Virus record (IMG/VR): IMGVR_UViG_3300033076_001232
Coordinates: 78,435 to 142,434 of that record
Strand: one strand, 5' to 3'
DNA: 64,000 nucleotides
Source of the DNA: a virus
Taxonomy: Duplodnaviria; Heunggongvirae; Uroviricota; Caudoviricetes
The notes under the pieces are model-generated. The model had not been told where the DNA came from. It searched no databases and was given only the letters and a program-made list of their open reading frames with translations. Positions 27,581 to 63,632 of the stretch are shown piece after piece (position 1 is the first letter of the stretch; each line of letters begins with the position of its first letter). The translations under genes and the position numbers were made by a program.

Positions 27581-27820
27581 ATGAAAAAATATTCAGAAGC
27601 GCAGGAACTAAATGAGATGAAATACGGACAACCTCTTTTCACTGAGAAAGATCGTATGAAAGATCTATTGGTAGCAGCATCAGGTAACGATCAAAGAGTT
27701 TTGAATGATATAGTTAACTGTTTAACCGACGAGCAAATGAAGAAATGCTACGATAAACTTTCTAAAGTTTATGGTTACACAGGTAGCACTGGTCAAAAAG
27801 TAGTTCCACCTAGCCTATAA
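27581..27820 (+). CDS. Small hypothetical protein with capsid-targeting-like leader
   Basis: Starts MKKYSEAQELNE and follows GATATATA. Confidence 0.55.
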   Translation: MKKYSEAQELNEMKYGQPLFTEKDRMKDLLVAASGNDQRVLNDIVNCLTDEQMKKCYDKLSKVYGYTGSTGQKVVPPSL

Positions 27821-27826
27821 TTTTTA

Positions 27827-28537
27827 ATGAACCTAGTAGGTATAGATTTTTCAATCAATTCCCCGGCATTTTGTTGCTTTAAGAATGGTGTTTACACGTG
27901 GGGATCTGTAACCAGATCCGATCGGTCTAAAGAATCACTCTTAAAAAATACCAAGAAACCTTATCATTGGCTAGATGCTGATGATAATTTTATTTTGGAC
28001 TTTATCGACAAGGAGGATCTCCCATCAGACTACAGTGAGAGAGAAAGAATGAAAATAGTGTACTTTTTAAGCGTTGTAGACAGCCTTTGGGATTCTATCA
28101 AGGGTGTAATGGGTAATTCACATTTTAGTGTCGCTATGGAGGGTTTAAGCTTCTCCTCGAATGGTAATGCGCTCATAGACATATCTATGGCTACGGCTTT
28201 ATTAAGAGAACGAATAATTAAAGAAATAGGGGTCGAATCATTTTATGTTTTCTCCCCAACCAGCATAAAAAAGTTTGCATTAAAAGGTAATGCAAAAAAA
28301 GATGAGCTTTATGAAGCTCTATGTAATTTTAAGGAAGACGAAACAAATTTAGGAGTATTTACTAGAATGTTAGTATCTAACAAAGAGGAATGGATAACAA
28401 AGGCCAAGCAGGTCAACAAACCCATTGATGATATTGTGGATGCAACTTGGATTAATTTGTATTTAAAAAAGGAATTAGAGGGAATTTATGGAATTAAGGG
28501 AAATCTTGAAAGTGAAACAGCTACTACGCCGATCTGA
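27827..28537 (+). CDS. RuvC-like (RNase H fold) Holliday junction resolvase/nuclease
   Basis: VGIDFSINSPA, AMEGLSFSS, SPTSIKKFALKGNAKKDEL and DDIVDA acidic motifs. Confidence 0.75.
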   Translation: MNLVGIDFSINSPAFCCFKNGVYTWGSVTRSDRSKESLLKNTKKPYHWLDADDNFILDFIDKEDLPSDYSERERMKIVYFLSVVDSLWDSIKGVMGNSHFSVAMEGLSFSSNGNALIDISMATALLRERIIKEIGVESFYVFSPTSIKKFALKGNAKKDELYEALCNFKEDETNLGVFTRMLVSNKEEWITKAKQVNKPIDDIVDATWINLYLKKELEGIYGIKGNLESETATTPI

Positions 28538-28697
28538 TAGCAATTGGATCGCTCTCATAAATAAAAAATCACAAAACATAATCAACTTTAGGGCCGGACC
28601 ATAAATCCGATCCAATTTTCTGTGGGTTATCCGATAGCCATAAAAATCGGAACAAAAAGAAAAATTTGAATAAAAACTAAAATTAATTTAAAAAACA

Positions 28698-29672
28698 ATG
28701 AGCAATTTAGACATTTTTAATTTGGACGCAGAGTCTTTCGTAACAAAGACCAACCAAGCAGGAGGATCAAAAGATCTTGAATTTTACAAACCTTATCCAG
28801 AGGATGGGAAGGATGGAGTTTATAAATCTCTAATCAGATTTGTACCTAACCCAGAAAATCCAGCTAAATCAAAGATCCACAAATACTATGTGTATTTGAA
28901 TGATCCAGTAAGCGGAAACGGATTTGCAGTTGACTGTCCATCCACGGTGGGCAAGAAATCAATTCTTAAGGATCTTTTCTGGAAATTGAAGAATTCGCAT
29001 TCTGCAGCAGATCAGGAATTGGCAAAAGCATTCTCGAGAAAAGAGGATTTTTATTCTCTAGTTCAGATCGTACAGGATAAAAATAATCCAGATTTAGAGG
29101 GTAAGATCATGATTTTCAAATTCGGTAAGAAAATCAATGAAATGATCGAAGCTCAGCTTCAGCCTGAGTATGGTGATGCTTGCAATCCTTTCGACTTATT
29201 TGAGGGAAGAGAATTTGCTATTAGCGTTAGAAAAGTTGGTGAGTGGAACAACTACGATTTATGTTCATTCGTAGGTGAGAGAACACCAATTAAGATTGAG
29301 GGTACACCGATGAAGAAGTCACAAGAGGATATGAACAAAATTCTCGAGTATCTAAACAGTGGACCTAGAAACTTATCATCTTTTGATTACAAAGATTGGG
29401 ACGATGAGGTAAACGAGAAAGTAATGGCTGTAATCAGAAATACAGTTCCTGAGCAAAGAATCGTGAACGAGATAGTAGGTGGAGTATCATCTGCTCCTTC
29501 TAAGCCAAATCCGGTTCAACAACCTAGCTACTCTGCTCCTTCATCATCTTCTCAGATGCTAGAGGAAGTATCTAATACTAAGGTAGGTGGACAGACTCCA
29601 AGAGAAACCCCAGTAGAAACTCCATCTTCTTCTGCTGGATCTTCATTAGATGATCTTTACGCAGATCTATAA
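28698..29672 (+). CDS. gp32: T4 gp32-like single-stranded DNA-binding protein
   Basis: IRFVP, FYSLVQIVQD...EGKIMIFKFGKKI and NPFDLFEG motifs; acidic tail SLDDLYADL. Confidence 0.85.
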   Translation: MSNLDIFNLDAESFVTKTNQAGGSKDLEFYKPYPEDGKDGVYKSLIRFVPNPENPAKSKIHKYYVYLNDPVSGNGFAVDCPSTVGKKSILKDLFWKLKNSHSAADQELAKAFSRKEDFYSLVQIVQDKNNPDLEGKIMIFKFGKKINEMIEAQLQPEYGDACNPFDLFEGREFAISVRKVGEWNNYDLCSFVGERTPIKIEGTPMKKSQEDMNKILEYLNSGPRNLSSFDYKDWDDEVNEKVMAVIRNTVPEQRIVNEIVGGVSSAPSKPNPVQQPSYSAPSSSSQMLEEVSNTKVGGQTPRETPVETPSSSAGSSLDDLYADL

Positions 29673-29684
29673 TAAAAACATAAC

Positions 29685-29718
29685 ATGGGGACTATTCATA
29701 GACTAGTCCCCATTTTTT
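29685..29718 (+). terminator. Rho-independent terminator
   Basis: ATGGGGACTA / TAGTCCCCAT 10-bp stem followed by a T-run. Confidence 0.75.
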
Positions 29719-29725
29719 ATCCCCT

Positions 29726-30790
29726 ATGGACACTTTAAAAGTAGAATCATTAGTTAGGGAAGTACTGGTTAGACAATTTCCAGGAAATCCAGGAAAGCAG
29801 ATAGTTTATCGAGGAGGAAATCGATTAAACATCTCGTGTCCATATTGTGGGGATTCTAATGATTCGAGAAAGAAAAGAGGAAATTTCTATCTAGATACAT
29901 TAGCATATAAGTGCTATAATGGAGGATGTGGAATATTTAAGGATTCTATTAGTTTCTTTAAAGATTTTTCTGTTTATAACAAGCTATCAGGACAGGAAAG
30001 GACAGAAATAAAATCAATCCTGGACGAAAACAGAGGAAAAAGAAAGAGCATCTACGGAAAAATAGATATCTCATTATTTTTCCAGAACGATATTAATGAG
30101 ATCACGATCAGCAGATCTGATTTCATGGCAAAATTGGGTCTTCAGAACGTATTCGGCTCACCGATACAGAGATACATTCAGAGAAGACATCAGAAGATGG
30201 ATAACAGGTTCGCTTGGGATCCAAAAAGAGAGAAGCTATATCTCTTTAATCTTACCCCCGATGATAAGATATTGGGATTGCAGGTAAGAAATATGCAATC
30301 AGTTAAGGGAAGTTCTAAATATCTTACCTACAAGTTGAGTGGGATATACGAGAAACTTCTGAGGGTAACTGACGAGGATACTTTAAATAAAGCCAGAGAG
30401 GTAGATCCAATATCTCATGTGTTTAATATAGGAACTCTGGATTTCAGTTTTCCTATTACCGTTTTCGAAGGACCTATGGATTCTTGGTTTTGGAATAATT
30501 CGGTAGGATTATGCTCTATAGAAAACAAATTTCCATTTGAAGTAGATGGTATCAGATATTGGTATGACTGGGATAAAGCTGGCATAGAAAAAAGTATGGA
30601 TCTATTAAGTAAAGGCTTTATCGTTTTTAACTGGGGAAAATTCCTGGAAGAGAATGACATAACTAAAAACAGAAAATGGGATCTGAATGATCTGGTTATT
30701 CATCTCAGATCTACTGGGAAGAAAATAAAGAGACTGGATGGATATTTTACTGATGATGTATTAGATCTAAGATATTTTATCAATGAGTGA
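29726..30790 (+). CDS. T4 gp61-like DNA primase
   Basis: Zn-binding CPYCGDS...YKCYNGGC; TOPRIM VFEGPMDS and WYDWDKAG. Confidence 0.85.
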   Translation: MDTLKVESLVREVLVRQFPGNPGKQIVYRGGNRLNISCPYCGDSNDSRKKRGNFYLDTLAYKCYNGGCGIFKDSISFFKDFSVYNKLSGQERTEIKSILDENRGKRKSIYGKIDISLFFQNDINEITISRSDFMAKLGLQNVFGSPIQRYIQRRHQKMDNRFAWDPKREKLYLFNLTPDDKILGLQVRNMQSVKGSSKYLTYKLSGIYEKLLRVTDEDTLNKAREVDPISHVFNIGTLDFSFPITVFEGPMDSWFWNNSVGLCSIENKFPFEVDGIRYWYDWDKAGIEKSMDLLSKGFIVFNWGKFLEENDITKNRKWDLNDLVIHLRSTGKKIKRLDGYFTDDVLDLRYFINE

Positions 30791-31025
30791 GGAAGAAATA
30801 AATAGCAAAATAGAGGAATGGGAATCTGGATTAAGTGGAGCGCTTCAGCCTAAACTAAAGTACCCGATTAAAATAGTGGGATCAGATCTCTTAAAAGTAA
30901 ATACTGAATTTCTCGAACCGAACATAGATCCGCCCAAGGAAAAAATTAAAAAGCAATCACCTCATTCAGCAAAAGTGGTGGATATATCAAATAGGAAAAA
31001 AAATAATAAGAAAAAACTATTCTAA
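30783..31025 (+). CDS. Hypothetical protein
   Basis: 80 aa ORF overlapping both neighbours in the operon. Confidence 0.5.
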   Translation: MSEEEINSKIEEWESGLSGALQPKLKYPIKIVGSDLLKVNTEFLEPNIDPPKEKIKKQSPHSAKVVDISNRKKNNKKKLF

Positions 31026-31471
31026 TGTCAAATACAGATAAAACTGATTTTAATAAGATATTCGAGCAAGAAAGATCTGAGTGGAAAGAGAGAATACAAG
31101 TTCTAGCTATAGAGATGAAGGACATTAAAACTTTGGCCAAAGCACAAGTTGATCTTTTTAGTCAAAGACAGGTATTATTGGAGTACAGCTATAAGCTAGC
31201 TTCAATCGTTTCCAAGCTAAATTCGAAATATAGGACTGAAAAATCAAGAAAACTGAAGGATTATTCGGAAAGAAGTGATGTCAGATACGGAGCGAACGAG
31301 AAAACTGTTTTGATCGAGGGAGACATTAGTGAAATAACAGAAAAAATAGAACTAGTGGAGGGTCACAGAAAGTTTATGGATCAAACTGTACAAACTATTG
31401 ACCATATGCTTTATGGAATAAAATCGAGGATAGCTCTAGAAGAGTATCTGAGAGGATCCACAGTGAAATAA
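31025..31471 (+). CDS. uvsY: UvsY-like recombination mediator
   Basis: 148 aa all-helical protein ending QTIDHMLYGIKSRIALEEYLRG, directly upstream of uvsW as in T4-like phages. Confidence 0.7.
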   Translation: MSNTDKTDFNKIFEQERSEWKERIQVLAIEMKDIKTLAKAQVDLFSQRQVLLEYSYKLASIVSKLNSKYRTEKSRKLKDYSERSDVRYGANEKTVLIEGDISEITEKIELVEGHRKFMDQTVQTIDHMLYGIKSRIALEEYLRGSTVK

Positions 31472-31480
31472 GATAACGAT

Positions 31481-33019
31481 ATGCTAAAATTTCAAGTTTC
31501 GGAGGATCATCAGTGGATGATATTAGTGGAAGCGCTTGATGAGGTAGAGAAGAAACAAATAGACATTTCTCTAACACAGAAAATACACAACTTCTACTTC
31601 CATCCTCTGGTTAAGAAAAAAATATGGGACGGGAGCATCTGCTTTATAGAAAAAAAAGGAGGCTTATGGAAAGTTCCAATTGGACTCTGGAGAGAAGTTC
31701 TAGAGATAGGTGAAAAGTACCAGATAGAGATTACCATAAAAGGTCTAGAGGATATTATAATAAACAGCATCACTCTGGAGGACTTTACTGAGTGGGTTAA
31801 TAATTTTTTCAAGGACGGTGTAGGTGGAGATCCTAATAAAAAGCCAAGAGATTATCAGATAGAGACCGCATGGAAAATAATAAGATACAGATATTCGGTT
31901 TCTGAGGTTGCTACCTCATCAGGTAAAACTCTAATATCTTTTATGATTTTTGCTTATCTCAAATCAAAGGGATTAATCAGGAAGTTTTTGATGATTGTTC
32001 CTAACACCAATCTAGTATTCCAGGGAAGCGATGATTTTATTGATTATGGTCTAGAGAAGCTCGATGTTAGGATTCAGCAAATAGGAGGTGGTAGCAAAAT
32101 AAGAGAGGGATGTGATTTAATTATAGGAACATTCCAATCTTTAGTTAAGCAGGATTCTGATTTTTATGATGGTGTAGATGCTGTATTTGTTGACGAAGCA
32201 CACCACACTAACAGTATGTCTATTAAAAAAATAGTTGCCCATTGTATGCAATCTAAATGGAGATTTGGACTAACTGGAACCCTAACAAAAAAAGGCACAG
32301 CTGACTATTTAACAATCCAGCAATTTTTGGGACCTTTGGTTGTTGAGATTCCACCGAGCTATCTTTTTGATAACAATTATGCTACGCCGGTATCAATTCG
32401 TGTCATTATTATGGATTGGCTGGAACCTGAGTACAAGCACAAATTAGCAGAATTAAAGACAAACTCTAACAACATAGAGGGAAATGAAATCTACAATATA
32501 GAAAGAAAGCTAGTTGTAGAGAGTAAAAAAAGACTAAATTATGTTGTTGATTTTATTAGGAGAGGATCTAAAAATTCATTAGTTCTTTTTCAGTCAGTTA
32601 AAGATGAGTACGGGAAGCAAATATGGAATTTAATAAGGGAGAAAAGTAGCGATAAAGAGGTCTTTTATGTCGACGGAGACACCAGCGAAAATCTGAGGGA
32701 AGAATACAAAGCAAGAATGTCTTCGGGTGAAAATAAGGTCCTAGTTGCAACATACGGTACTTTTTCCACCGGTATTTCAATTAACAACATACATAATATC
32801 TTTCTGGTAGAATCGTATAAGAGTGAGATTCTCATAAAGCAAAGCTTAGGTAGGGGGATGAGAAAAATGGACGGCAAGGACAAAGTTAATGTCATTGATT
32901 TCGTTGATGATTTTTCCACCGGAAAGTACCAAAACTACCTACTTAAGCACAGCAAAGAAAGGATAGAGATTTATAAGAAAGAATTCTTTGAATATAAAAT
33001 ATACAATGTAAAACTCTAA
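31481..33019 (+). CDS. uvsW: UvsW-like SF2 helicase
   Basis: PRDYQ, ATSSGKT, VDEAHH, GLTGT and QSLGRGMR motifs. Confidence 0.9.
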   Translation: MLKFQVSEDHQWMILVEALDEVEKKQIDISLTQKIHNFYFHPLVKKKIWDGSICFIEKKGGLWKVPIGLWREVLEIGEKYQIEITIKGLEDIIINSITLEDFTEWVNNFFKDGVGGDPNKKPRDYQIETAWKIIRYRYSVSEVATSSGKTLISFMIFAYLKSKGLIRKFLMIVPNTNLVFQGSDDFIDYGLEKLDVRIQQIGGGSKIREGCDLIIGTFQSLVKQDSDFYDGVDAVFVDEAHHTNSMSIKKIVAHCMQSKWRFGLTGTLTKKGTADYLTIQQFLGPLVVEIPPSYLFDNNYATPVSIRVIIMDWLEPEYKHKLAELKTNSNNIEGNEIYNIERKLVVESKKRLNYVVDFIRRGSKNSLVLFQSVKDEYGKQIWNLIREKSSDKEVFYVDGDTSENLREEYKARMSSGENKVLVATYGTFSTGISINNIHNIFLVESYKSEILIKQSLGRGMRKMDGKDKVNVIDFVDDFSTGKYQNYLLKHSKERIEIYKKEFFEYKIYNVKL

Positions 33020-33030
33020 TTTAGTTTGGG

Positions 33031-33038
33031 GATATATA
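33031..33038 (+). promoter_or_regulatory. GATATATA putative late promoter
   Basis: Exact motif 18 nt before ATG 33057. Confidence 0.65.
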
Positions 33039-33056
33039 CATAAAAAGTTTTTTGTG

Positions 33057-33602
33057 ATGAGAATTAAAAAGTTTGACACTTTTGTATCGGAGAATTTAAA
33101 CGAGGATGTTTCCCAATATAAAGGAAAGACCACATTTAGTAAGTGGCTTAGAGCCATAGATGACCGGATTAAAACCGATGTGAATGACGCATCTTTCTAT
33201 TCACGATATTCTGATCCTAGGACCGATAAATACGTTTCTGCAAATAAAGCTGCGGCTCTAATTCCTGGAGCATTTAGGCTTATTGCTGGAGCAGGTGCAG
33301 CGGTGGCTGATTTCTTTTCCAAAGGTGACAATAAAGACACAGTTTCTAAATATTCTAAAGAGGATCTAGCATCTAAAAAAGACGAGATTGTGAAAAAATG
33401 GGAGGAAGAGAATATAAAATCCGATTCTACCGAGGCAGACGCTGAAAAGTTCTACAAATCAGGTGTACTAAAGGGTAAAAAGTTCTTTGGCCCTGAATAC
33501 GATCCAGTAAAACCTAAAAACAAAGAGGAAGAGATCTATACCGATTACATAAATGATGTAATGGAAAGGTACTATAAAAGAACATCGAAGCATGCCAGAT
33601 AA
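33057..33602 (+). CDS. Putative internal head protein with capsid-targeting-like leader
   Basis: Starts MRIKKFDTFVSENLNE; contains a hydrophobic helix AAALIPGAFRLIAGAGAAVADFF. ATG 33057 is preferred over GTG 33054. Confidence 0.6.
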   Translation: MRIKKFDTFVSENLNEDVSQYKGKTTFSKWLRAIDDRIKTDVNDASFYSRYSDPRTDKYVSANKAAALIPGAFRLIAGAGAAVADFFSKGDNKDTVSKYSKEDLASKKDEIVKKWEEENIKSDSTEADAEKFYKSGVLKGKKFFGPEYDPVKPKNKEEEIYTDYINDVMERYYKRTSKHAR

Positions 33603-34521
33603 TCTGATGAATTTTTCTATATTCTCCAAGCTTTTTGAAGGTGGTAATGCTATAAAAACAGCTAGAAGTATTAGAGAAGATGAGTTTCCTAAAACAATGG
33701 ATAGTATAAAATCAATACTTTTCCCAGTTCTTGGTATAGATCCCACAAAGGAAGGATCTGAATATTTGGTAATAGGAAGCATAGGAAAGAAAAAAAATCC
33801 GGATGATACTTCTGGTGATCTTGATATCGGATATGACAGCAGTTGGTTTGCAAGAAAACATGGGGTTACACCTAAAGAAACCTCTGCTGAAGTTTATAGA
33901 TTGATCTCAGAGTCTCTCCCTGAAAAATTGGGATTTAATCCCGAGGTCAACTACATGAAAGGACTAAATATTGTAAGTTTAGGTTGGCCAATTCAAGAGG
34001 ATCCAAATAAAGGTATAGTTCAGTTAGATTTAATCCCCGTTTCAAGTATGGAATGGGCCAAATTCATATACTATTCACCAAATTATAAGATATCCGAGAG
34101 CAAATATAAATCTGCACATAGAAACTGGCTTCTTGCTGCTATATTAGCATCAAGAAGACAAACATTAAAATCAGATCCAAGCGGACAAATAATGGACTAC
34201 GACTCCCCTGTTTTGATGCTTAGTGATGGTCTATTCTGGCACACAAAATCTTATGCTAGTAAAATTAAGGATAGACTTAAGAATCCCAAAAAAGTTGAGG
34301 GAAGCGAAAGATTTATTACTAGAGATCCCCAGGAGTTTATAGATTTTACATTAGGTCCGGGATATTCTCAGGATGAGGTAAAAACTTTCGAACAAGTTCT
34401 GAGCATTATTAATGATCCGGAATTCGAACTATACGATAACCTGGAAGAGATTAAGGATAGGTTTGTAGAATATCTAAAAAGAACAGGATTAGAAATACCA
34501 GCCGAAATAAATCAGATTTAA
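33592..34521 (+). CDS. Pol-beta-superfamily nucleotidyltransferase-like protein
   Basis: IGSIGKK...SGDLDIG (GS...DxD) and third Asp in VQLDL; leader LMNFSIFSKLFE. Confidence 0.7.
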   Translation: MPDNLMNFSIFSKLFEGGNAIKTARSIREDEFPKTMDSIKSILFPVLGIDPTKEGSEYLVIGSIGKKKNPDDTSGDLDIGYDSSWFARKHGVTPKETSAEVYRLISESLPEKLGFNPEVNYMKGLNIVSLGWPIQEDPNKGIVQLDLIPVSSMEWAKFIYYSPNYKISESKYKSAHRNWLLAAILASRRQTLKSDPSGQIMDYDSPVLMLSDGLFWHTKSYASKIKDRLKNPKKVEGSERFITRDPQEFIDFTLGPGYSQDEVKTFEQVLSIINDPEFELYDNLEEIKDRFVEYLKRTGLEIPAEINQI

Positions 34522-34523
34522 GG

Positions 34524-34531
34524 GATATAAA
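34524..34531 (+). promoter_or_regulatory. GATATAAA variant of late promoter motif
   Basis: One mismatch to GATATATA, 26 nt before ATG 34558. Confidence 0.35.
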
Positions 34532-34557
34532 ATATACATTATTAAAAGAAGATCGAT

Positions 34558-36558: not shown

Positions 36559-36564
36559 ACAGTA

Positions 36565-37107
36565 ATGAATAGATTCATAACAAATTTTAATGATTTTAGA
36601 TTCTCGGTTAACGAGAGCGATGGGTTTGGAACATCCTCCTTCCTATTAAAGAAAGAATCTGACATTTATCACTATTTCTTTAATCTAGACAAAGAAAACG
36701 GTGAAACCAATGCCTATCACCTAATCATCGGTAAATATTCAGACAGAGAGGTGATCGAAGGACCTAAGAATTCTTATTGTGTGTTAACAATAAATGAGAT
36801 ATCACCCGAAATCGTTGAAGATATAGCTGTTGATAAAGAGGATATTCCTAGAATGAATTCTGAAAAATTCAAAATGGGATCCGACGAGTTATCCAGACTG
36901 ATGAAATATGTTTATAAATGTGTAAACGATTATCTCCAGATCAACCCGAAGGTAATAAGAATCTATGACGAACTTCAAGATAATCTAGTCTATGATGGAA
37001 AGGGAAGCTACCTAGAGTATACGAAATCCATATCCATATCTGAACTTGGATCAAATTGGGCTGTACAGGAGGGATCATCAAAAATGACAGTAATTATCAG
37101 TAGATAA
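36565..37107 (+). CDS. Putative internal head protein with capsid-targeting-like leader
   Basis: Starts MNRFITNFNDFRFSVNES; remainder unrecognised. Confidence 0.55.
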   Translation: MNRFITNFNDFRFSVNESDGFGTSSFLLKKESDIYHYFFNLDKENGETNAYHLIIGKYSDREVIEGPKNSYCVLTINEISPEIVEDIAVDKEDIPRMNSEKFKMGSDELSRLMKYVYKCVNDYLQINPKVIRIYDELQDNLVYDGKGSYLEYTKSISISELGSNWAVQEGSSKMTVIISR

Positions 37108-37159
37108 GAAACTTTTCAAGCCTAATCGGTATAATATTAAACTTAAAAAATAAAAAAAA

Positions 37160-37336
37160 ATGGAAAAATTCGAACAGATCAAAGCTCTTATCGAGCAGAC
37201 ACAGGGAGACGTTGAAAAATTTGCAGCTAAAGGTAATGCAACTGCAGGAACACGCGTAAGAAAAGCTATGCAGGAATTGAAAAACCTAGCACAAGAATTA
37301 CGTGTTGAAATCCAAGAGGCAAAAAACAAAGCTTAA
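37160..37336 (+). CDS. Histone H1-like small basic protein (Bacteroidota type); absent from the ORF track
   Basis: 58 aa, MEKFEQIKALIEQTQGDVEKFAAKGNATAGTRVRKAMQELKNLAQELRVEIQEAKNKA. GNxxAGTRxRKA is the signature. Confidence 0.8.
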   Translation: MEKFEQIKALIEQTQGDVEKFAAKGNATAGTRVRKAMQELKNLAQELRVEIQEAKNKA

Positions 37337-37354
37337 TCTTTTAAATTTTATCAA

Positions 37355-37591
37355 ATGAGTTATTGGGTAGTTAAAACCAAATTCGAATCTGGAGAGGTAA
37401 AAAAGAATGGCGATCCAGTTTATAAAAAAGCAGAATTCTTAGTAGCTGGTGACTCTGTCATCGAGGTAGAAAAGAAAGTTGCTGAGTATATGGACGGCAC
37501 CATAGGAGGCTACGAGTCTTTCCAGGTTACAAAAACCAAAATCGAAGCCGTTATATACGACAAAGACAAATATGAAGAACAACTCCTCTAA
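37355..37591 (+). CDS. DUF4494-like protein
   Basis: YWVVKTKF...EFLVAGDSVIEVEKKVAEYM resembles the Bacteroidota DUF4494 pattern (W..KV+Y...YLVDA.S.TEAE). Confidence 0.55.
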   Translation: MSYWVVKTKFESGEVKKNGDPVYKKAEFLVAGDSVIEVEKKVAEYMDGTIGGYESFQVTKTKIEAVIYDKDKYEEQLL

Positions 37592-37820
37592 TTCCACTGA
37601 AACCAGATTTTATGCTCCGCCACAATCGCCTATAGCAATCCAACCCGGTGATACAGGATTTAAAACTGTAGGGAAAGGATATAATCGATTTATATGGACA
37701 TTTGCAGACTGGCAGAAAGGGAAGAAGAAGATTATAGATCCGGATAAAAACTGGGATCTAGATTCAAAACCTATTACCCAGAAGGAATGGGATAAAAAAC
37801 AAAAAGGCTTATATCTATAA
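37572..37820 (+). CDS. Hypothetical protein
   Basis: 82 aa ORF whose stop lies inside the downstream hairpin. Confidence 0.5.
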   Translation: MKNNSSNSTETRFYAPPQSPIAIQPGDTGFKTVGKGYNRFIWTFADWQKGKKKIIDPDKNWDLDSKPITQKEWDKKQKGLYL

Positions 37821-37828
37821 GCCTTTTT
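37801..37828. terminator. Hairpin terminator (potentially bidirectional)
   Basis: Perfect 13-bp inverted repeat AAAAAGGCTTATA / TATAAGCCTTTTT. Confidence 0.7.
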
Positions 37829-37832
37829 TGTT

Positions 37833-37853
37833 GATATATAGATCGTATAAATA
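37833..37853 (+). promoter_or_regulatory. GATATATA plus T4-type TATAAATA late promoter motifs
   Basis: GATATATA 37833-37840 and TATAAATA 37846-37853, just after a terminator and before ATG 37865. Confidence 0.65.
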
Positions 37854-37864
37854 AAATTTTAATC

Positions 37865-39464: not shown

Positions 39465-39472
39465 GATATATA
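39465..39472 (+). promoter_or_regulatory. GATATATA putative late promoter
   Basis: Exact motif only 5 nt before GTG 39478. Confidence 0.6.
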
Positions 39473-39477: not shown

Positions 39478-39891
39478 GTGAAACACGTTGTAGATTTCGA
39501 GGAATATGATCCATCTGACGAGTATAAATCCGATTCTCGTAGATCCATTAATTTGGACAGAATTAGAAAATCTGTAGAATATAAGAGGATCATAGAAATG
39601 GGCTTTGATGAGGATACGTCTCATCAACAAGAGCTAAATAACACCATGAAGTTTATCCGAACCAAACACAAGAAAAGGGAGAAGGGTCACGGAGACGTCT
39701 TTTACACAATTCACCCGACCGGAACAGTTCGTAGATATAATCCTATAAGATCAAAGGAAACTCCAGAGGGGAGTGGAAACGATATTAAAAAATTCTTAGA
39801 TCCATTTAAGACCACAGCAGACTATAAAAAGGGATTAAATTACCTATGGCAGTATCTTAAAAGGAAAGAAGAAAAGGGAGATTATAGATAA
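39478..39891 (+). CDS. Putative internal head protein with capsid-targeting-like leader
   Basis: GTG start, MKHVVDFEEYD. Confidence 0.55.
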   Translation: MKHVVDFEEYDPSDEYKSDSRRSINLDRIRKSVEYKRIIEMGFDEDTSHQQELNNTMKFIRTKHKKREKGHGDVFYTIHPTGTVRRYNPIRSKETPEGSGNDIKKFLDPFKTTADYKKGLNYLWQYLKRKEEKGDYR

Positions 39892-41127: not shown

Positions 41128-41135
41128 GATATATA
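41128..41135 (+). promoter_or_regulatory. GATATATA putative late promoter
   Basis: Exact motif 36 nt before ATG 41172. Confidence 0.6.
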
Positions 41136-41171: not shown

Positions 41172-42422
41172 ATGGCAAGACCAGTATTAAATTTCGCAGA
41201 TTTCTTAATCGAGTCTGCAAGAATGATCAACGAGGGGTATAGCTTTAGTCAGGCTAAAGAGATACTTTCTCAATATATTAAAAAAGCAACAAAAGCTCAA
41301 GAAGGAGATATAACTTCAATTAAAACGGTTACTCCTGAGCAAATAGCTTTAATCGAAAGAATCGCAGGAAGTGTTTCGGAAGAAGCTGTTAAAGCTTTAG
41401 GTGATGCACTAGGAAATATGTTAAATGTTTCTTTGGATAATAAGAAGATGGAATTGGATGTGGAAAACACTGAGATAGCTATTAATAATCTTAAAGTTAG
41501 TAATGTAGTAGCTGGACAAGTATTTTGTGACGAGATTCCTACTACTTCAGTTAAGACAGCAACACTCGCAGAAAATAAGACATCTTTAGAGGCACTTATC
41601 ACAGCTATAAACTTGTACAATACAGAAGCAAGAAAAGATCAAAAATACTGGTCTCAGAAAAAAGAAGGTGCTGAATTAAAATGGAATAAGAAAGACGGTA
41701 ATGTTGCTAATTCAGTAGAGGATAACCAGATTTTCATAACTAATGCAGATTCTAAGGTTGAGTGGAAGAAGAATACTTTTGCCAATAATATTACCCCATT
41801 AGCCGGTGGGATTGATGCTGGTTCAAATCCAAGTTCTGATGGATTAAAAGTAAACCTAGTTTTATATGGTATTAAAAACGTAGCAGAAGGAGCGGGAGGG
41901 AAAATTTCTGTAAATGAGATCGTTCCTGTTACTATTAAAAAAGGTGGAGGTACGACAGAAAAATCTGTTGATATCCAAGACAACGGGACTTTATTCGCAA
42001 AAGCTAAATCTGAATTATTAGAGAACGGTAAAAGAAACATATTTAATGCTATCCAAACCAACTTTACTTCAGTTAGCAGTGTAGAAGTAATCGGAGGGGC
42101 ATCTAAAGAGGGTGACGAATCTTTCAACAAGAAGCTTTGTTTAGATAGAGCAAATTCAGTAGCTGAATTCCTTAAAGAACTTATCCCTGGTGCTACTATC
42201 ACGGCTTCTAAAGAAACAAATATTCAGCCTCTAGAAAGTACTGAAGATCTAAAAACTTGGAGAAAAGTTACATTGAAAATCACTGGTACTTTAAGTGCAG
42301 TTGAACCAGCTCAGGAAGTTATACAATACGTTGCACAGAATAAGCAGATATCTTCAGATAGATATGACTTATATCAGATTACTCTTTGCTTCTACGCAGC
42401 ACTAGATCAAGAAAATAAATAA
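41172..42422 (+). CDS. Protein with C-terminal OmpA-like (peptidoglycan-binding-type) domain and capsid-targeting-like leader
   Basis: LFAKAKSEL...VEVIGGASKEGDESFNKKLCLDRANSVAEFL...WRKVTLKI; starts VLNFADFLIE; no signal peptide. Confidence 0.65.
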   Translation: MARPVLNFADFLIESARMINEGYSFSQAKEILSQYIKKATKAQEGDITSIKTVTPEQIALIERIAGSVSEEAVKALGDALGNMLNVSLDNKKMELDVENTEIAINNLKVSNVVAGQVFCDEIPTTSVKTATLAENKTSLEALITAINLYNTEARKDQKYWSQKKEGAELKWNKKDGNVANSVEDNQIFITNADSKVEWKKNTFANNITPLAGGIDAGSNPSSDGLKVNLVLYGIKNVAEGAGGKISVNEIVPVTIKKGGGTTEKSVDIQDNGTLFAKAKSELLENGKRNIFNAIQTNFTSVSSVEVIGGASKEGDESFNKKLCLDRANSVAEFLKELIPGATITASKETNIQPLESTEDLKTWRKVTLKITGTLSAVEPAQEVIQYVAQNKQISSDRYDLYQITLCFYAALDQENK

Positions 42423-43106: not shown

Positions 43107-43508
43107 ATGAAAATTAAGGATAGAGAGATTTTAATACAAGAGGATTATCTGAACGATCCCTGGAAAATGTTAGTCTGCTGTATACTACTAAATCAAACAA
43201 ACAATAAGCAGGTTAGACCGATTTTAAGCTCCGTATTTGATCTTATTCCGAATCCCATGTCTGCATCTGGGGTTGATGTCAAAGTGTTAGCAGAGGTCAT
43301 AAAAACCACCGGATTTCAGAATGTAAAAGCTTCAAGGATTAAAAAGCTGAGTCAAAAGTGGACGGAAGGATTTTCTTCCGTTTCAGATCTTCCTGGCATA
43401 GGAAAATATGGAAATGATTCCTGGGAGATATTTATAAATAAAAAAATTGATATTACTCCAACGGATAAAAAGTTGGCTAAGTATTTAGAGGATATCTCTA
43501 TTTCTTAG
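43107..43508 (+). CDS. Minimal MBD4-like HhH-GPD DNA glycosylase
   Basis: DPWKMLVCCILLNQT, TTGFQNVKASRI and DLPGIGKYGNDSWEIF; start reassigned to ATG 43107. Confidence 0.8.
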   Translation: MKIKDREILIQEDYLNDPWKMLVCCILLNQTNNKQVRPILSSVFDLIPNPMSASGVDVKVLAEVIKTTGFQNVKASRIKKLSQKWTEGFSSVSDLPGIGKYGNDSWEIFINKKIDITPTDKKLAKYLEDISIS

Positions 43509-43800
43509 GTTTAGCTTTTTCTCTAAATGCTCCTTTAATATAATCGGTTACCTCGGATCCAGATCTTTTTTTCTCCGATAGGAATTTATTAAAAGCTTCG
43601 GATTTCCCCTCCTTGTCTAGAAACATGTTAATCTCAGCTGATTCGTACATGGCATCAATCACTTCAGGCATCTGTGGATTTGCCGAAGTGTAATTTCTAG
43701 AATTTACTCTAATCTCACTACTTTGACCAGGAACGTCCACGCTACCAGGTGAATCTATCCATTCAAACAGGAATTTGTCGAAATTTTTTAAATTTTTCAT
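43498..43800 (-). CDS. Putative internal head protein with capsid-targeting-like leader
   Basis: Starts MKNLKNFDKFLFE, with a second copy EAFNKFLSE. The variant AATATATA lies 7 nt upstream on the minus strand (43808-43815). Confidence 0.6.
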   Translation of the reverse strand: MKNLKNFDKFLFEWIDSPGSVDVPGQSSEIRVNSRNYTSANPQMPEVIDAMYESAEINMFLDKEGKSEAFNKFLSEKKRSGSEVTDYIKGAFREKAKPKK

Positions 43801-43870
43801 CTAATAGTATATATTCACCCGGAACTTAAGAAAGTCAGATGGATAGAAAAGATACAAAAATCTCAATTTA

Positions 43871-45309: not shown

Positions 45310-45317
45310 GATATATA
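45310..45317 (+). promoter_or_regulatory. GATATATA putative promoter in a hairpin loop
   Basis: Exact motif flanked by GGGTCTTTT / AAAAACCC, 53 nt before ATG 45371. Confidence 0.55.
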
Positions 45318-45850: not shown

Positions 45851-45872
45851 TTAAAAAAAATTAAAGTTAACT

Positions 45873-46856: not shown

Positions 46857-46875
46857 AAATAATAATCTAAATTAA

Positions 46876-49371: not shown

Positions 49372-49386
49372 AGACTTTTAAACCAT

Positions 49387-50013
49387 ATGGAGACATTAAA
49401 ATATTTTAACCAATTTTTAAATGAACGAGAACTTCCCGATAGCCAAGGGGAAGTTCTTGTTATTTTAGGGGCACCCGGATCAGGGAAGGGAACCTTATCT
49501 AAGGTACTTCAGGACGAATACGGAATCCACCACATTTCAACTGGGGATCTTATAAGAAAATCAGAAGATGAAGAACTTAAAAAGATTATCGAGGGTGGTA
49601 ATCTAGTCCCAGATTCGATGATGGTAAAAATGCTTAATAAAGAGCTGGAAAAAATAGACGTTGCAAAGGGTATTATTTTTGACGGATTTCCTAGAACAAT
49701 TAAGCAAGCTAAAAAATTAGATTCCATTTTGGGTAAAATGGGATTGGGATTAAATCATGCTATATTTTTAGATCTTGACGAAGAAACAGCTAAGGAAAGA
49801 ATTAGAGAAAGAGCTAAAAAGGAAGATCGTAAGGATGATACCAGCGATGAAATTATAGAGAATAGATTTAAAGAATATCACGATAAAACTTTTCCTCTTT
49901 TAGATTTCTATAAGAGAAGTAGGAAACTTTTAAAGATAGATGCAGAAGGTGGTAAGGATAAGGTTCTAGCATCAGTGGTAGAAAAGTTAGGTCTCAAGAA
50001 GAAAAAGAATTAA
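49387..50013 (+). CDS. adk: Adenylate kinase (short LID) with N-terminal capsid-targeting-like extension
   Basis: GAPGSGKGT, HISTGDL, GNLVPD, FDGFPRT and RKDD; extension METLKYFNQFLNE. Confidence 0.9.
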   Translation: METLKYFNQFLNERELPDSQGEVLVILGAPGSGKGTLSKVLQDEYGIHHISTGDLIRKSEDEELKKIIEGGNLVPDSMMVKMLNKELEKIDVAKGIIFDGFPRTIKQAKKLDSILGKMGLGLNHAIFLDLDEETAKERIRERAKKEDRKDDTSDEIIENRFKEYHDKTFPLLDFYKRSRKLLKIDAEGGKDKVLASVVEKLGLKKKKN

Positions 50014-51994: not shown

Positions 51995-52011
51995 GATATA
52001 TACTATAAATA
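51995..52011 (+). promoter_or_regulatory. GATATATA plus TATAAATA late promoter motifs
   Basis: GATATATA 51995-52002 and TATAAATA 52004-52011, before ATG 52024. Confidence 0.65.
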
Positions 52012-52023: not shown

Positions 52024-52578
52024 ATGATACATCTTTTAGAATTTGAAGCATTCTCTGGTTTTTATCTTAATGAGAATGATATTAGAGGTGGTATTCCTAT
52101 CTATAACGAAGACGTTTTCATGCAGAGCAATAACGCAAAGCCTGCCATGATGGTTAAGTCAACTGAACTTGTTTCCACTCTAACTAGATTATTGGAGGAT
52201 CAAGAGAATGGAGATTTAGAAAGAATCATCGTTATCGCTGAAATCCCAACCCAAGGTAAAAATGCTCCTCAGTATGTAAGAGACGACGTTGCAGCAGAAA
52301 GAGATAGAATGGCTAAAAGAAAATACGCTCTATATGGGAGCAGAATAGAAAGAGCGGATAGACCTGAGGATGAGGAATACACTGACGCTATTAATATTTT
52401 CGTTGATTCCGAATTTATTGTTAAGGGTGTAATCAATAAATTAGGTAAAGACTATATTATAGCAATTCCTGACTCTAAGAAGAAGAAAGCTGAAGCTAGT
52501 GCTTCCGCTATGGAATACTACACAGTTTACATCGAGCCTAAACAGGTAGATGAGGTATTTTTTGTACCTTCAAAATAA
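52024..52578 (+). CDS. Putative internal head protein with capsid-targeting-like leader
   Basis: Starts MIHLLEFEAFSGFYLNE; has its own promoter motif and terminator. Confidence 0.6.
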   Translation: MIHLLEFEAFSGFYLNENDIRGGIPIYNEDVFMQSNNAKPAMMVKSTELVSTLTRLLEDQENGDLERIIVIAEIPTQGKNAPQYVRDDVAAERDRMAKRKYALYGSRIERADRPEDEEYTDAINIFVDSEFIVKGVINKLGKDYIIAIPDSKKKKAEASASAMEYYTVYIEPKQVDEVFFVPSK

Positions 52579-57742: not shown

Positions 57743-57743
57743 A

Positions 57744-59141: not shown

Positions 59142-59178
59142 AAGTAAATCCACAGTAAGAACTATTAAAAGATAAAAT

Positions 59179-59943: not shown

Positions 59944-59947
59944 GAAT

Positions 59948-61096
59948 ATGACCCAGGAAGAAATACTAGAAATAAAAGAAAGGATAGAAAGTCTTACCTC
60001 GCTCAAGAATGAGCTTAAGAATGAGGAACAGGCAATTAAGTTAACGATGAACTCCATCTACGGAGCGATCGGGAACAACTGGTTTGTTTGCTTCAATCCT
60101 GACGTAGCAGAATCGGTAACGCTTCAGGGACAAGATTTAATAAAATATTCTGAGAAGATTCTACATAAGTACTTTCATGAGCACTGGCATCTTGATAAGG
60201 AGTTACATGAAAAGCTTGGTGTTACTGATGTTAAAAGGGTGATTAAACCTCTGGTAGTTTATGGAGATACTGATTCTAATTATGTTACATTCCAGGAAGT
60301 AGTGGATTCATGTAACTATCAGGGAGACGATAAAGAGCTTATCCTAAAGATAAACGAATATCGATTAAATGATTACTTAAAGAAATGCTTCGATATTTAC
60401 TCTAAAAAATGGAATACCGATAACTATCAGGATTTTGAGCTTGAAACTCTTTCTTATAATGGTATATTCCTAGGTAAGAAAAAATATGTGGTTAACCTTG
60501 CTTATGATTCAGGTATACACACTGACGCCCTTTCTCAATTGAAATTCACAGGGGTGGAGATGATTAAAGGGGGTACACCTCCTTTTGTTAGAGAGAAACT
60601 TGTATATCTGACAAAGTTCATATTCTCAAAAGGTAGAAATTTTGACATTCGTGAGTTTGTTAAGGAGCTTAAGAATATAAAGAAGGACTTTAAAGTTCAG
60701 GAGCCCAAGAGTATTTCAGCTTCAGTGAATATCAATAACTACGAGAAGTTTATACTTAATGACACTACTGGATTCGAGGTGGCTAAGGCATGTCCAATCC
60801 ACGTAAGAGCATCAGGATACCATAATTATTTGCTAAATAATTCTAAATATAAAAGCAAATACTCTTTGATCAGAAGCTCAGAGAAAGTCAACTACTATTT
60901 CGTTAAAACTAAATCGATCGCAGATAACAACGTATTTGCTTATCCACAGGGGACATATCCATATGAGTTTGCCCCGCCGATTGATTATGACGAGCAGTTT
61001 ACTAAAACTATTCTCGATCCCATTAATAGATTCATCGAAGTCATGGGATATAATAAGATAAGTCCGAATCTATTCATGATTAATGCTCTTTTTTGA
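59948..61096 (+). CDS. polB: Family B DNA polymerase, C-terminal half (second fingers helix, motifs B and C, thumb)
   Basis: KLTMNSIYG (motif B), VTLQGQ, YGDTDS (motif C), KKKYV and GVEMIKG; no exonuclease or motif A. Confidence 0.9.
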   Translation: MTQEEILEIKERIESLTSLKNELKNEEQAIKLTMNSIYGAIGNNWFVCFNPDVAESVTLQGQDLIKYSEKILHKYFHEHWHLDKELHEKLGVTDVKRVIKPLVVYGDTDSNYVTFQEVVDSCNYQGDDKELILKINEYRLNDYLKKCFDIYSKKWNTDNYQDFELETLSYNGIFLGKKKYVVNLAYDSGIHTDALSQLKFTGVEMIKGGTPPFVREKLVYLTKFIFSKGRNFDIREFVKELKNIKKDFKVQEPKSISASVNINNYEKFILNDTTGFEVAKACPIHVRASGYHNYLLNNSKYKSKYSLIRSSEKVNYYFVKTKSIADNNVFAYPQGTYPYEFAPPIDYDEQFTKTILDPINRFIEVMGYNKISPNLFMINALF

Positions 61097-61098
61097 TT

Positions 61099-61293: not shown

Positions 61294-61576
61294 GGAAGAG
61301 ATTAAAGAATATCTTATAGATTCCTTAAATGCTGTTGTTTTTACCGGCAGGGAATATGAGGAGTATAAATTACTTATGATAGAGGAGGCAAACGATATAC
61401 TTTCTGATAAGAAAAGATACGTGATATCAAGTCCACTCCCTATACACTCAAAATTATCCAGAATTAATGATCTTATAGACTTTTTTACTATCCAGGAGGA
61501 GAAAGAAATAGTCAAAGATTTGACTGCTCTAAGAGATTCGGTTAGACTTCGTTTCTATTTCGAAGAATTCGTATAA
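61283..61576 (+). CDS. Hypothetical protein
   Basis: Start reassigned to ATG 61283 (MRSEEEIKEYL) to avoid a long overlap. Confidence 0.5.
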   Translation: MRSEEEIKEYLIDSLNAVVFTGREYEEYKLLMIEEANDILSDKKRYVISSPLPIHSKLSRINDLIDFFTIQEEKEIVKDLTALRDSVRLRFYFEEFV

Positions 61577-61591
61577 AATCCCTTCGATTGG

Positions 61592-61599
61592 GATATATA
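61592..61599 (+). promoter_or_regulatory. GATATATA putative late promoter
   Basis: Exact motif 21 nt before ATG 61621. Confidence 0.6.
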
Positions 61600-61620
61600 A
61601 GAAGCAAAATAAATTACAAC

Positions 61621-63078
61621 ATGTCATCTAATAGAGTACTTGATTTTTTCTCCTATATTAATGAATCTAAGGGGGAAACTACAAAAATAGTGGTTTTAAC
61701 GGGGAACGTTAAAGGAAGTAAAACATCCAAATCCTTCGAAGAGGAATGTAAGAAGAGAAAAATTGAGTGTCATATAGTAGATGTTAATGATGTCATTTTA
61801 GAAAAGGCTTACAATGGTCACATCATTAAAACCGGAGAGGATCAGATTACGATAGATCCTAATTCTACTGTGATAGTACCAAGAAGAGGGGTCTTAGAAA
61901 ACTCATATACGAAGCAGGTGTTAACGTATTTAGAAGATGCTAGATACTTTACAGTTAATACTCTCGAATCTATGGAAGTGTGCGAGAATAAATACCTCAC
62001 TTCTCAAGTTTTAGAGGAGAGCGGCTTACCAGTTCCTAGATGTGCATTAGTACCCAATGAGGATTTTTTAGACTCTGCATTGAAAGAAATAGGTGGTAAA
62101 TTTCCGGTAGTTATGAAGCTTCTATCAGGTACTCAAGGTATTGGGGTTTCTATAGTTGATTCTTACTCTTCATTAAAATCGGTTTATCAAACGATTAGAA
62201 AGCTTGATGGAAATAATGAGATCCTGATTCAAGAGAAAATAGATTCGAATTTTGACCTTAGAATCCAGGTAATAATTAAGAAATTTGATCCTTTGCAACC
62301 AGATCCAGATAACTGTATGATTCTGGGATCTATGAAGAGACAAGCTGTTAAAAAGGATTTTAGAACAAATTACTCTTTAGGTGGATCTGTTTCTAAATAT
62401 AATATTTCTAAGGAAATAGAAGAAATAGCATGTAAGGCTGCAAATGCAGTTGGATGTCACTGGTGTGGGGTTGATATAATGATAGACTCTAAAACTAAAA
62501 AACCTTACATCTTAGAGGTTAATTCATCTCCAGGAACCGAAGGTATATCACAGGCTATAGGTAAACCTATCGTGGATGATGTAATAGATTACCTGGTAGA
62601 GAAAAGCAATTGGTCTTATTCTAATCTGGAAGTTGGGTATTTAGAGACTTTAGAAATTCCTGGATTAGGTTCAGTTGTAGCCAAATTCGATACTGGTAAC
62701 GGAGCTAAATCATGCAGTATCCACTGTGATGAGGTAGAAGAAATAGACGGTAAACTGAAATGGAAAATCGGTAAGAAAAACTTCGTAAGTGATATAGTTG
62801 GATATTCAGATGCTGAAGTAGGTAAAGATATCCACACCAGACCAATTATCGAGATGGACATTTTATTCCACGGTGTATTGGTACCTGCAGTAAAAATATC
62901 TCCTGTCGACAGAACAGAGAAAAGCACACCATTCTTAGCAAATAGAGGATTTATGAGAAGACTTGGATTAATAGTTAATCCATATAAAGCCTTTGTAGTT
63001 TCGGAAGAGCCTAAGAAAGGATATGGTGCTGGTGCTTCAAAAGGAGAAGCCCACGCCGGAATTAAATTTGAAAAATAA
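61621..63078 (+). CDS. rimK: RimK-family ATP-grasp ligase fused to C-terminal RimB-like retropepsin protease, with capsid-targeting-like leader
   Basis: KLLSGTQGIGV, IQEKI, FRTNYSLGG, GVDI and LEVNSSPGTEGI; then VGYLETLEIPGLG..AKFDTG...SIH; starts VLDFFSYINE. Confidence 0.85.
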   Translation: MSSNRVLDFFSYINESKGETTKIVVLTGNVKGSKTSKSFEEECKKRKIECHIVDVNDVILEKAYNGHIIKTGEDQITIDPNSTVIVPRRGVLENSYTKQVLTYLEDARYFTVNTLESMEVCENKYLTSQVLEESGLPVPRCALVPNEDFLDSALKEIGGKFPVVMKLLSGTQGIGVSIVDSYSSLKSVYQTIRKLDGNNEILIQEKIDSNFDLRIQVIIKKFDPLQPDPDNCMILGSMKRQAVKKDFRTNYSLGGSVSKYNISKEIEEIACKAANAVGCHWCGVDIMIDSKTKKPYILEVNSSPGTEGISQAIGKPIVDDVIDYLVEKSNWSYSNLEVGYLETLEIPGLGSVVAKFDTGNGAKSCSIHCDEVEEIDGKLKWKIGKKNFVSDIVGYSDAEVGKDIHTRPIIEMDILFHGVLVPAVKISPVDRTEKSTPFLANRGFMRRLGLIVNPYKAFVVSEEPKKGYGAGASKGEAHAGIKFEK

Positions 63079-63090
63079 CAAACAGATAAA

Positions 63091-63306
63091 ATGGAAAACC
63101 TAAAAGAGTTTGGTAGCATTAGCGAATCATCTAGCCAAGATGAAAAAACAGAAAAAATCCAAGTTCTTCTTTCCAAAGAAGATTTAACTGACTTGAGTAG
63201 AAAAATCTCCAAAGAAGCTCTTGCTAAAGGAGAAGCACCGGTTTCTATTTCTCATTACGTGAGAAAATTGATTAGAAGAAACCTAGGGAAAACTACTGAG
63301 GATTAA
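63091..63306 (+). CDS. Ribbon-helix-helix-like DNA-binding protein
   Basis: Beta strand EKIQVLLS, then a helix, then SISHYVRKLIRRNL; leader MENLKEFGSISE. Confidence 0.55.
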   Translation: MENLKEFGSISESSSQDEKTEKIQVLLSKEDLTDLSRKISKEALAKGEAPVSISHYVRKLIRRNLGKTTED

Positions 63307-63311
63307 TTTCT

Positions 63312-63632
63312 ATGCGACTGCTAATAGAATTTGACGATTACCTAGAAGATGATCTAGATCTGGGTGAGCCAGAAAAGGCAATGATTCGAAACTGGATACA
63401 GAAGTATGAAAAGTACTTCAATTTCCATAATAGTGGGGAATTCACTGATTCTATTGATCAGATAACAAAAGACTGTATAGAACAATTAGGAATCGATAAA
63501 TCAAAAAGTGATGCAGTTCAAGATTACCTAGAAAGTCTATATACTCTTTCGGATGGACTATCAGTAGTGATGGCTCCTGGACCGGAATTACAATATACAA
63601 ATATAGACCAAGTTCAGAGATTTCAATATTAA
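63312..63632 (+). CDS. Putative internal head protein with capsid-targeting-like leader
   Basis: Starts MRLLIEFDDYLE. Confidence 0.55.
   Translation: MRLLIEFDDYLEDDLDLGEPEKAMIRNWIQKYEKYFNFHNSGEFTDSIDQITKDCIEQLGIDKSKSDAVQDYLESLYTLSDGLSVVMAPGPELQYTNIDQVQRFQY

Follow-up and report, generated by a model that had tools for sequence, protein, structure and literature searches.

A shared N-terminal leader on unrelated proteins of an uncultured jumbo phage: a probable relative of the T4 capsid-targeting sequence that resembles the repeats of a putative protease-scaffold protein

Why should a dozen otherwise unrelated proteins of one phage begin in nearly the same way? The question is raised by a 64-kb stretch of DNA (the window; bases 78435-142434 of the 250,353-bp virus record IMGVR_UViG_3300033076_001232; 36% G+C), in which a preliminary description had picked out, between positions 27581 and 63632, about 12 proteins that share a short N-terminal leader, taken to be a capsid-targeting sequence for enzymes carried in the head. 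All 12 N-termini translate as quoted there, save for the GTG start (Val, not Met) at 39478. Our findings argue that the leader is probably a lineage-specific propeptide for capsid targeting, 13 residues long and related to the 10-residue capsid-targeting sequence (CTS) of phage T4. A T4-type head, the register of the leader, a motif shared with scaffold and capsid protein, a late-gene context and the portability of the tag are all, at the sequence level, as that proposal predicts.

Nearly all genes of this phage lie on a single strand, and our own gene calls, made with a simple longest-open-reading-frame heuristic, comprise ~314 open reading frames and a proteome of 78,268 residues. Written as a regular expression over the first 25 residues ([LIVM]xx[FY]xx[FYW], 0-8 residues, [LIV]xE), the consensus of the preliminary description matches 19 of the 314 N-termini, against 1.5 in shuffled ones (standard deviation 1.2, maximum 6, 1000 shuffles), so that the motif is far from being as common in shuffles; its rate is 0.6% in internal 25-residue windows and 0.7% in windows that start at an internal Met. 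No DNA match to window positions 30000-37900 was found among deposited phage genomes, and by capsid protein the deposited phages closest to it are the Prevotella Lak megaphages (43-46% identity) and an uncultured phage of 462 kb (45%), with Tenacibaculum and Flavobacterium jumbo phages at 30-37%. Closer relatives by the same protein, at least 179, occur in IMG/VR, the best 80 at 72-100% identity on contigs of up to 434 kb. Three whole related genomes were compared, here G001 (270 kb), G005 (230 kb) and G004 (434 kb), in which strict matches number 22, 10 and 41, respectively, against 1-3 expected. With a position weight matrix in a leave-one-genome-out design, each genome being scored by a matrix from the other three at a threshold of at least 10 bits, 24 N-termini are recovered in this phage, where ~1 is expected, and 36, 15 and 65 in the others (0.7-2.5 expected per genome from internal-Met windows). 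Over regular expression and matrix together, the rate in internal windows is 0.1-0.7%. Thus, the leader had been rightly recognized, and each of the three related jumbo phages also carries 15-65 tagged genes, but the set is larger than about 12: at least 12 more tagged genes lie in the 250-kb genome beyond 27581-63632, and some form of the leader can be seen by eye on ~35 genes, giving 24-35 of ~314. Among the original 12, nine score at least 10 bits, those at 27581 and 63091 are marginal, and that at 39478 is unscored owing to its GTG start, yet its orthologues in G001 and G004 score 19 bits. Start-codon miscalls lie behind some apparently untagged orthologues (G001_132716, G004_9022, G004_300600, g232897 and g224556).

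Such an excess might be thought to lack any function at the protein level, reflecting AT-rich codon bias after the starts of a host without Shine-Dalgarno sequences, or a mobile cassette of promoter plus first codons. The genome has 36% G+C, residues with AT-rich codons (K, N, F, I and E) abound in the leaders, and the same promoter motif stands before many of them. However, 19 matches against 1.5 in residue shuffles are not so explained, the distance from motif to ATG ranges from 11 to 43 nt, and other late genes with the same promoter are untagged. Synonymous codons in the leaders are mixed as they are genome-wide: Phe, Glu and Asn codons follow general usage (TTT:TTC 131:75 vs 9652:5335), and the hydrophobic residue two places before the terminal Glu (P3, the Glu being P1) is drawn from more than 12 codons. 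Because synonymous codons at the conserved positions match genome usage, selection acts on the peptide and not on an RNA or DNA signal. An origin in codon bias or a DNA cassette, which we find scarcely credible, is contradicted by the shuffle test and synonymous codon usage.

When the 140 tagged proteins of the four genomes were clustered by BLASTP from residue 29 to the end, with the first 28 residues removed, they formed 90 clusters with no relationship to one another beyond the leader, most of them confined to a single genome. With one representative of each of these families, the consensus reads M-K-N-I-K-N-F-E-D-F-[IL]-N-E, followed by Ser, Asn, Ala or Gly. Phe is residue 7 in 56 of the 90 families, I/L/V stands three residues before that aromatic in 81, and a second aromatic three residues after it in 84. 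Positions 4 (I/L/V in 81 families) and 7 (F/Y in 85) are the most conserved, although conservation alone does not prove function. The spacer between this putative helix and [LIV]-x-Glu is variable and usually of zero length, the terminal Glu falling at residues 10-23 (mode 13). P3 is L/I/V in 78 families and P1 is Glu in 80, counts partly built into the training of the matrix. The leader would thus consist of two parts, a short amphipathic N-terminal helix with Ile or Leu at 4, Phe at 7 and an aromatic at 10, and a protease site, [LIV]-(N)-Glu, before Ser/Asn/Ala/Gly.

The tag is an addition to otherwise complete enzymes, as first noted for adenylate kinase (Adk) and the RimK-type ligase: the alignment of solved adenylate kinases begins at residue 23-24 of the phage protein, opposite residue 2-3 of the solved enzymes, and for RimK structures the offset is 24 residues. 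In an AlphaFold (AF2) model of Adk built with 30 homologues, residues 1-20 have a predicted local distance difference test score of ~42 and the fold begins at residue 23; F7, F10 and E13 are nonetheless invariant across the 30 aligned homologues. A leader conserved yet predicted to be disordered bears the signature of a short linear motif. The best 120 database homologues of Adk are all phage-type, of ~208 residues, and start with the same leader. Pfam folds of the tagged proteins comprise, in the window, ADK, the RimK ATP-grasp and a weak OmpA-like match; elsewhere in this genome, CHAP, a SleB-like Hydrolase_2, the head domain of CCA-adding enzymes (PolyA_pol) and Pribosyltran; and in the relatives, Phage_lysozyme, CHAP, a peptidoglycan (PG)-binding domain, an RNase_T-type exonuclease and a MoxR-type AAA_5 ATPase.

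A conserved but disordered linear motif could also be a docking helix for another late partner, such as a chaperone (the N-terminus of T4 gp23 directs proteins to GroEL), a membrane or assembly-factory site, or the phage's own ClpP. The phage encodes both DnaJ and ClpP, and chaperonin recruitment is cited as one role of T4 propeptides (PMC10052503). This alternative, which we judge quite improbable, leaves unexplained both the absence of the tag from tail and other large late proteins and the constant [LIV]-x-Glu end, which is common to the maturation site of the capsid protein and to the scaffold repeats, as follows.

The head genes lie 5' of the window and include a T4-type portal (PF07230, Portal_T4, E 5e-58). 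There are in fact two tandem T4-type gp20-like portal paralogues (genome 28572-31880) of 559 and 535 residues with long identical stretches, which is unusual in one phage; the Pfam and PHROGs check covered the first. A 673-residue protein (genome 42671-44692) starts, over about residues 1-230, as a gp21-family prohead protease, matching PF03420 at 34.5 bits in the genome search and 32.3 bits in the Pfam scan (cut-off 27 bits), PF20034 (Peptidase_S77/S80 hits) and phrog_207, 'head maturation protease' (E 2e-39). Directly 3' of it lies a gp23-family capsid gene (PF07068, Gp23, E 2e-41), followed by three genes for charged, coiled-coil-like proteins of 386, 297 and 85 residues that carry the leader, a tag kept across relatives; tagged coiled-coil genes beside the capsid gene behave as core or scaffold proteins would be expected to. 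The N-terminal arm of the capsid protein holds three hydrophobic-x-Glu sites, INE6, IIE18 and LNE43|SAG; in the last, HSLNE43 is followed by SAGAY, and the surrounding tract is identical in all ~75 capsid proteins of relatives compared. LNE43|S, which ends as the leaders end, is the predicted maturation site of the capsid protein.

Residues 297-485 of the 673-residue protein form 13-14 tandem 14-residue units, Y-S-x-Y-L-A-E-N-[LV]-D-x-x-I-x, each with a motif like the protease site, and its N-terminus carries the cleavage-type motif LNE9. Of the 46 occurrences of the pattern [FYW]xx[FYW][LIVM]xE in the proteome (78,268 residues), nine are at N-termini and 13 in this array, and the others are isolated and dispersed. 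All four genomes keep the array, unit for unit; AlphaFold predicts long helices for it, of low confidence in the monomer, and a small confident helical domain at residues 581-626. From these features we infer a fusion of protease and scaffold that would be cut at every repeat, with the cargo leader imitating one repeat: because the units of the tail (Y-x-x-Y-L-A-E|N) resemble the leader, the tag looks like one free scaffold repeat. A complex prediction of the full protein with Adk residues 1-45 scored 0.00, without controls, and is used neither way. More tentatively, such mimicry may be clade-wide. In jumbo phages of Bacteroidota type (72-100% capsid identity, 230-434 kb) the tag would then be a free copy of a scaffold repeat, proteins that acquire it would co-assemble with the core and be freed by the same cut, and some 10% of the proteome would be pre-packaged, with several wall hydrolases and enzymes acting on nucleotides and RNA among it; the injected proteome could be read from the sequence.

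The context of the tagged genes is also telling. The motif GATATATA occurs 45 times in the genome, 37 of them on the coding strand and mostly 11-35 nt (range to 43 nt) before start codons; in the four genomes there are 45-92 occurrences each, with the variants GAATATATA and AAATATATA. Since it stands 5' of structural and lysis genes (sheath, head-closure, tape-measure-like, fibre, portal, protease, scaffold-like, virion-structural and endolysin), we read it as a late promoter. Of the 24 tagged genes, 15 have [GA]ATATATA in the 70 nt before them, as against 28 of the 288 others (odds ratio 15.5, p 6e-9), and the association recurs in the three relatives (odds ratios 10.4, 8.4 and 7.5); the other nine tagged genes follow a motif at a distance of no more than three tightly packed genes. 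The co-occurrence with the late promoter that the capsid-targeting proposal implied is seen with the earlier regular expression too (odds ratio 8.8, p 3e-5), and the seven window genes said to follow the motif or its variant do so (motifs at 27555, 33031, 39465, 41128, 51995, 61592 and, on the minus strand, 43815 with GAATATATA). The tagged genes of the window lie amid replication genes, with late motifs of their own, and the tag is absent from their neighbours in the window, namely the split family-B DNA polymerase (PolB), ribonucleotide reductase (RNR), topoisomerase II, UvdE and DnaJ; a spread to replication proteins, which would have spoken against the earlier proposal, is thus not what we see. 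Among late products, the tail, neck and portal proteins lack the tag, which therefore does not mark late genes in general; the capsid protein lacks it too.

If the leader is a capsid-targeting propeptide, its helix would, late in infection, dock the tagged protein on the assembling prohead core, itself built by the protease-scaffold fusion with its helical tail of 13-14 leader-like units. Once the gp23-type shell had closed, the gp21-type protease would cut after Glu in leaders, scaffold repeats and capsid LNE43|S, and the mature cargo, free inside the head, would exit with the DNA. By analogy with T4, the tagged proteins may thus be packaged, cleaved and injected with the DNA, as the 'host-takeover kit' of the preliminary description supposed. 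That description had enzymes as the cargo; Adk and RimK stand, but the cargo consists mainly of cell-wall hydrolases and proteins of unknown function and not only of metabolic enzymes. CHAP, SleB-like, lysozyme and PG-binding cargo suits proteins that must deal with the cell wall as the phage enters. In most genomes the tag is missing from an endolysin-like and a peptidase-like family, but G005 has extra paralogues of both that carry it. These (L121:8956-9873 and L119:14850-15920) belong to the endolysin family phrog_181 and to a 200-residue family guessed to be a peptidase, both untagged in the present genome; tagged and untagged forms resemble distinct 'entry' and 'exit' enzymes for wall degradation. 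That genomes with tagged wall hydrolases also encode untagged ones for lysis suggests that the tagged ones act separately, during entry.

The main rival is a tag for assembly or processing without delivery. The leader would again be a propeptide removed by the protease, and its carriers core or scaffold accessories, or enzymes held near heads, that are later expelled or left in the dying cell. The tag on the coiled-coil, scaffold-like genes beside the capsid gene suits this idea, as do the T4 counterparts of such core proteins, which are degraded and leave the head (PMC9026906), and the cytoplasm is where one would most expect metabolic enzymes such as Adk to be of use. Conversely, the tagged wall hydrolases have untagged lysis counterparts in the same genomes, and T4 CTS fusions do reach the next host (PMC9026906), so we hold this rival to be unlikely. 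Several observations nonetheless weigh against capsid targeting. A clean [LIV]-x-E is missing from several leaders (e.g. 39478, g241352 and g241825), and the P1 and P3 counts partly follow from the training of the matrix. In Adk, the last gene of a nucleotide-metabolism string, the leader is followed by an invariant linker, RELPD.QG, which could serve another role. Adenylate kinase, a CCA-adding or poly(A) polymerase-type enzyme and a phosphoribosyltransferase would be odd, unusual virion cargo, and the isoelectric points of tagged proteins are distributed as in the rest of the proteome, not basic as in T4 internal proteins. The late status of the promoter is deduced from the genes downstream of it, and in a phage that is uncultured we infer docking, cleavage, encapsidation and ejection alike.

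Features of the window are collected in table 1. Most of its tagged proteins have no assigned function after Pfam, PHROGs and PDB sequence searches, and the same searches gave no support to three earlier labels, 'Pol-beta NTase' (nucleotidyltransferase; 33592), 'RHH' (ribbon-helix-helix) and the 'protease' attached to RimK; for 'OmpA-like' a Pfam match does exist, but is sub-threshold. The two parts of the family-B DNA polymerase (window 43871-45277 and 59948-61096) lie ~14.7 kb apart, with RNR, topoisomerase and tagged genes between them; the exonuclease domain and the initial third of the polymerase domain are in one part, and the remainder, from profile position ~133, is in the other. At 45371-50013, a MazG-like nucleoside triphosphate (NTP) pyrophosphohydrolase, the small and large RNR subunits and the tagged Adk are tightly packed behind a single GATATATA; nucleotide-metabolism genes behind a late-type motif are unexpected. 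Outside the window, a true ClpP homologue (genome 223727-224401; PF00574, E 5e-60) starts with a weak likeness of the leader that ends in FSLSE|G and, at 7 bits, is under the threshold.

Table 1. Tagged genes and late-promoter-like motifs of the window (window coordinates; bits are leader scores, and | marks the predicted cut)
Feature	Position	Strand	Remarks
GATATATA late-promoter-like motif	27555..27562	+	25 nt before the start at 27581
79-residue protein	27581..27820	+	9.0 bits; degenerate leader, end ELNE|M; tagged orthologues in relatives
GATATATA motif	33031..33038	+	Heads operon 33057-37107
181-residue tagged protein	33057..33602	+	29 bits; Phe at 6; leader end NLNE|D
309-residue tagged protein	33592..34521	+	12.6 bits; leader end KLFE|G
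180-residue tagged protein	36565..37107	+	18.6 bits; leader end SVNE|S
GATATATA motif	39465..39472	+	Immediately 5' of the GTG start at 39478
137-residue protein, GTG start	39478..39891	+	Helical half of leader, V-x-x-F-x-x-Y, without canonical [LIV]-x-E
GATATATA motif	41128..41135	+	5' of 41172
416-residue tagged protein	41172..42422	+	19.4 bits; FLIE|S; weak OmpA-like peptidoglycan-binding Pfam match, E 5e-4, under cut-off
100-residue tagged protein	43498..43800	-	26 bits; FLFE|W
GAATATATA variant motif	43808..43815	-	5' of the minus-strand tagged gene
GATATATA motif	45310..45317	+	Heads MazG-like / RNR small / RNR large / Adk string
Adenylate kinase (Adk)	49387..50013	+	21-residue N-terminal add-on ending FLNE|R; fold from residue 23
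GATATATA motif	51995..52002	+	5' of 52024
184-residue tagged protein	52024..52578	+	28 bits; YLNE|N
GATATATA motif	61592..61599	+	5' of 61621
RimK-type ATP-grasp ligase	61621..63078	+	~24-residue N-terminal add-on, YINE|S; C-terminal ~155 residues without match
71-residue protein	63091..63306	+	Marginal leader, 7.8 bits; SISE|S
106-residue tagged protein	63312..63632	+	19 bits; DYLE|D; tagged in 4 of 4 genomes
All motif sites, variants included	6355, 20208, 27555, 33031, 37833, 39465, 40031, 41128, 45310, 51995, 61592	+	
All motif sites, variants included	43815, 6364	-	

If the tag works as in T4, sequence is enough to name the delivered proteins, 24-65 of them in each genome and 90 families over the four. 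Such a list would be a catalogue of candidate effectors of the first minute of infection: enzymes that pierce the wall or act on nucleotides and RNA, and proteins without assigned function, some of which may counter host defences. The likeness of tag and scaffold repeat offers a testable answer to an old question in T4, the binding partner of the CTS, and a portable 13-residue tag with a self-removing site would be useful for loading foreign proteins into the capsids of Bacteroidota phages.

Short, portable peptides that load diverse enzymes into a shell of HK97 fold are familiar from encapsulins, whose cargo-loading peptides are likewise disordered. They are non-viral, usually C-terminal and uncleaved, and bind the shell directly; the parallel is one of analogy. 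Also comparable are the phiKZ-like giant phages (phiKZ gp175, SPN3US gp245, 201phi2-1), with heads of dozens of proteins, many of them ejected, in which a distant gp21 homologue cuts after Glu in many head proteins. In phiKZ and SPN3US the motif is A/S/G-x-E and most propeptides are protein-specific and of 111-254 residues (PMC10052503). The present leaders do not belong to that class, as their P3 is L/I/V, not A/S/G, and they are short and shared. No account of capsid targeting in huge phages was found among the papers searched, and those that link it to jumbo phages deal with SPN3US and phiKZ-type phages or just cite the T4 work.

A fused 'prohead core scaffolding protein and protease' is annotated in Tenacibaculum phage PTm1, and in this the two phages are alike; leader and scaffold repeats are absent from the 50-kb stretch around the head genes of PTm1 (37% capsid identity) and from the 42-kb stretch around the capsid gene of LR756500.1 (45%). 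The prohead core of T4 (gp22, gp21, gp67 and gp68) similarly joins a protease to a helical scaffold with hydrophobic-x-Glu cut sites, and has small coiled-coil core proteins encoded beside the capsid gene. The difference is that here protease and scaffold form one 673-residue protein with 13-14 leader-like 14-residue repeats.

It is T4 itself that offers the nearest parallel to the leader. Mullaney and Black reportedly described, in 1996, the CTS of IPI, IPII and IPIII (also present in the Alt propeptide) and its removal by the gp21 prohead protease. Both systems have a head of gp20/gp21/gp23 type and place an N-terminal tag of 10-19 residues on unrelated proteins, M-K-x-hydrophobic(4)-x-x-Phe(7) with an [LI]-x-Glu end, and in both the tagged genes are a variable, lineage-specific accessory set. 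In T4, Asp in place of the cleavage-site Glu prevents processing while targeting persists. The 10-residue T4 string quoted in the preliminary description occurs in PMC8442874. In IPIII the first ten residues are enough for encapsidation (PMC9026906; PMC3012670), residues 4 and 7 serving targeting and 8 and 10 processing (PMC9026906). Foreign proteins, too, are packaged by means of the T4 CTS and passed on to the next host, and the CTS is all that the diverse internal proteins have in common (PMC9026906; PMC3012670). Even the protease is alike: close to its N-terminus it bears a motif of cleavage type, LNE9 in the present phage and LIE9 in T4 gp21 (PMC9026906). Our leader differs in its modal length of 13 residues rather than 10, with one extra helical turn, an aromatic at 10 and a preference for Asn at P2. 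It is also carried by ~8-10% of genes (24-65 per genome) as against a handful in T4, and by enzymes and cell-wall hydrolases, known here from their sequences alone, that are not basic. Overall, the principle is known from T4; what is of interest in the present phages is its scale, its T4-like register and the likeness of the tag to the repeats of the scaffold.

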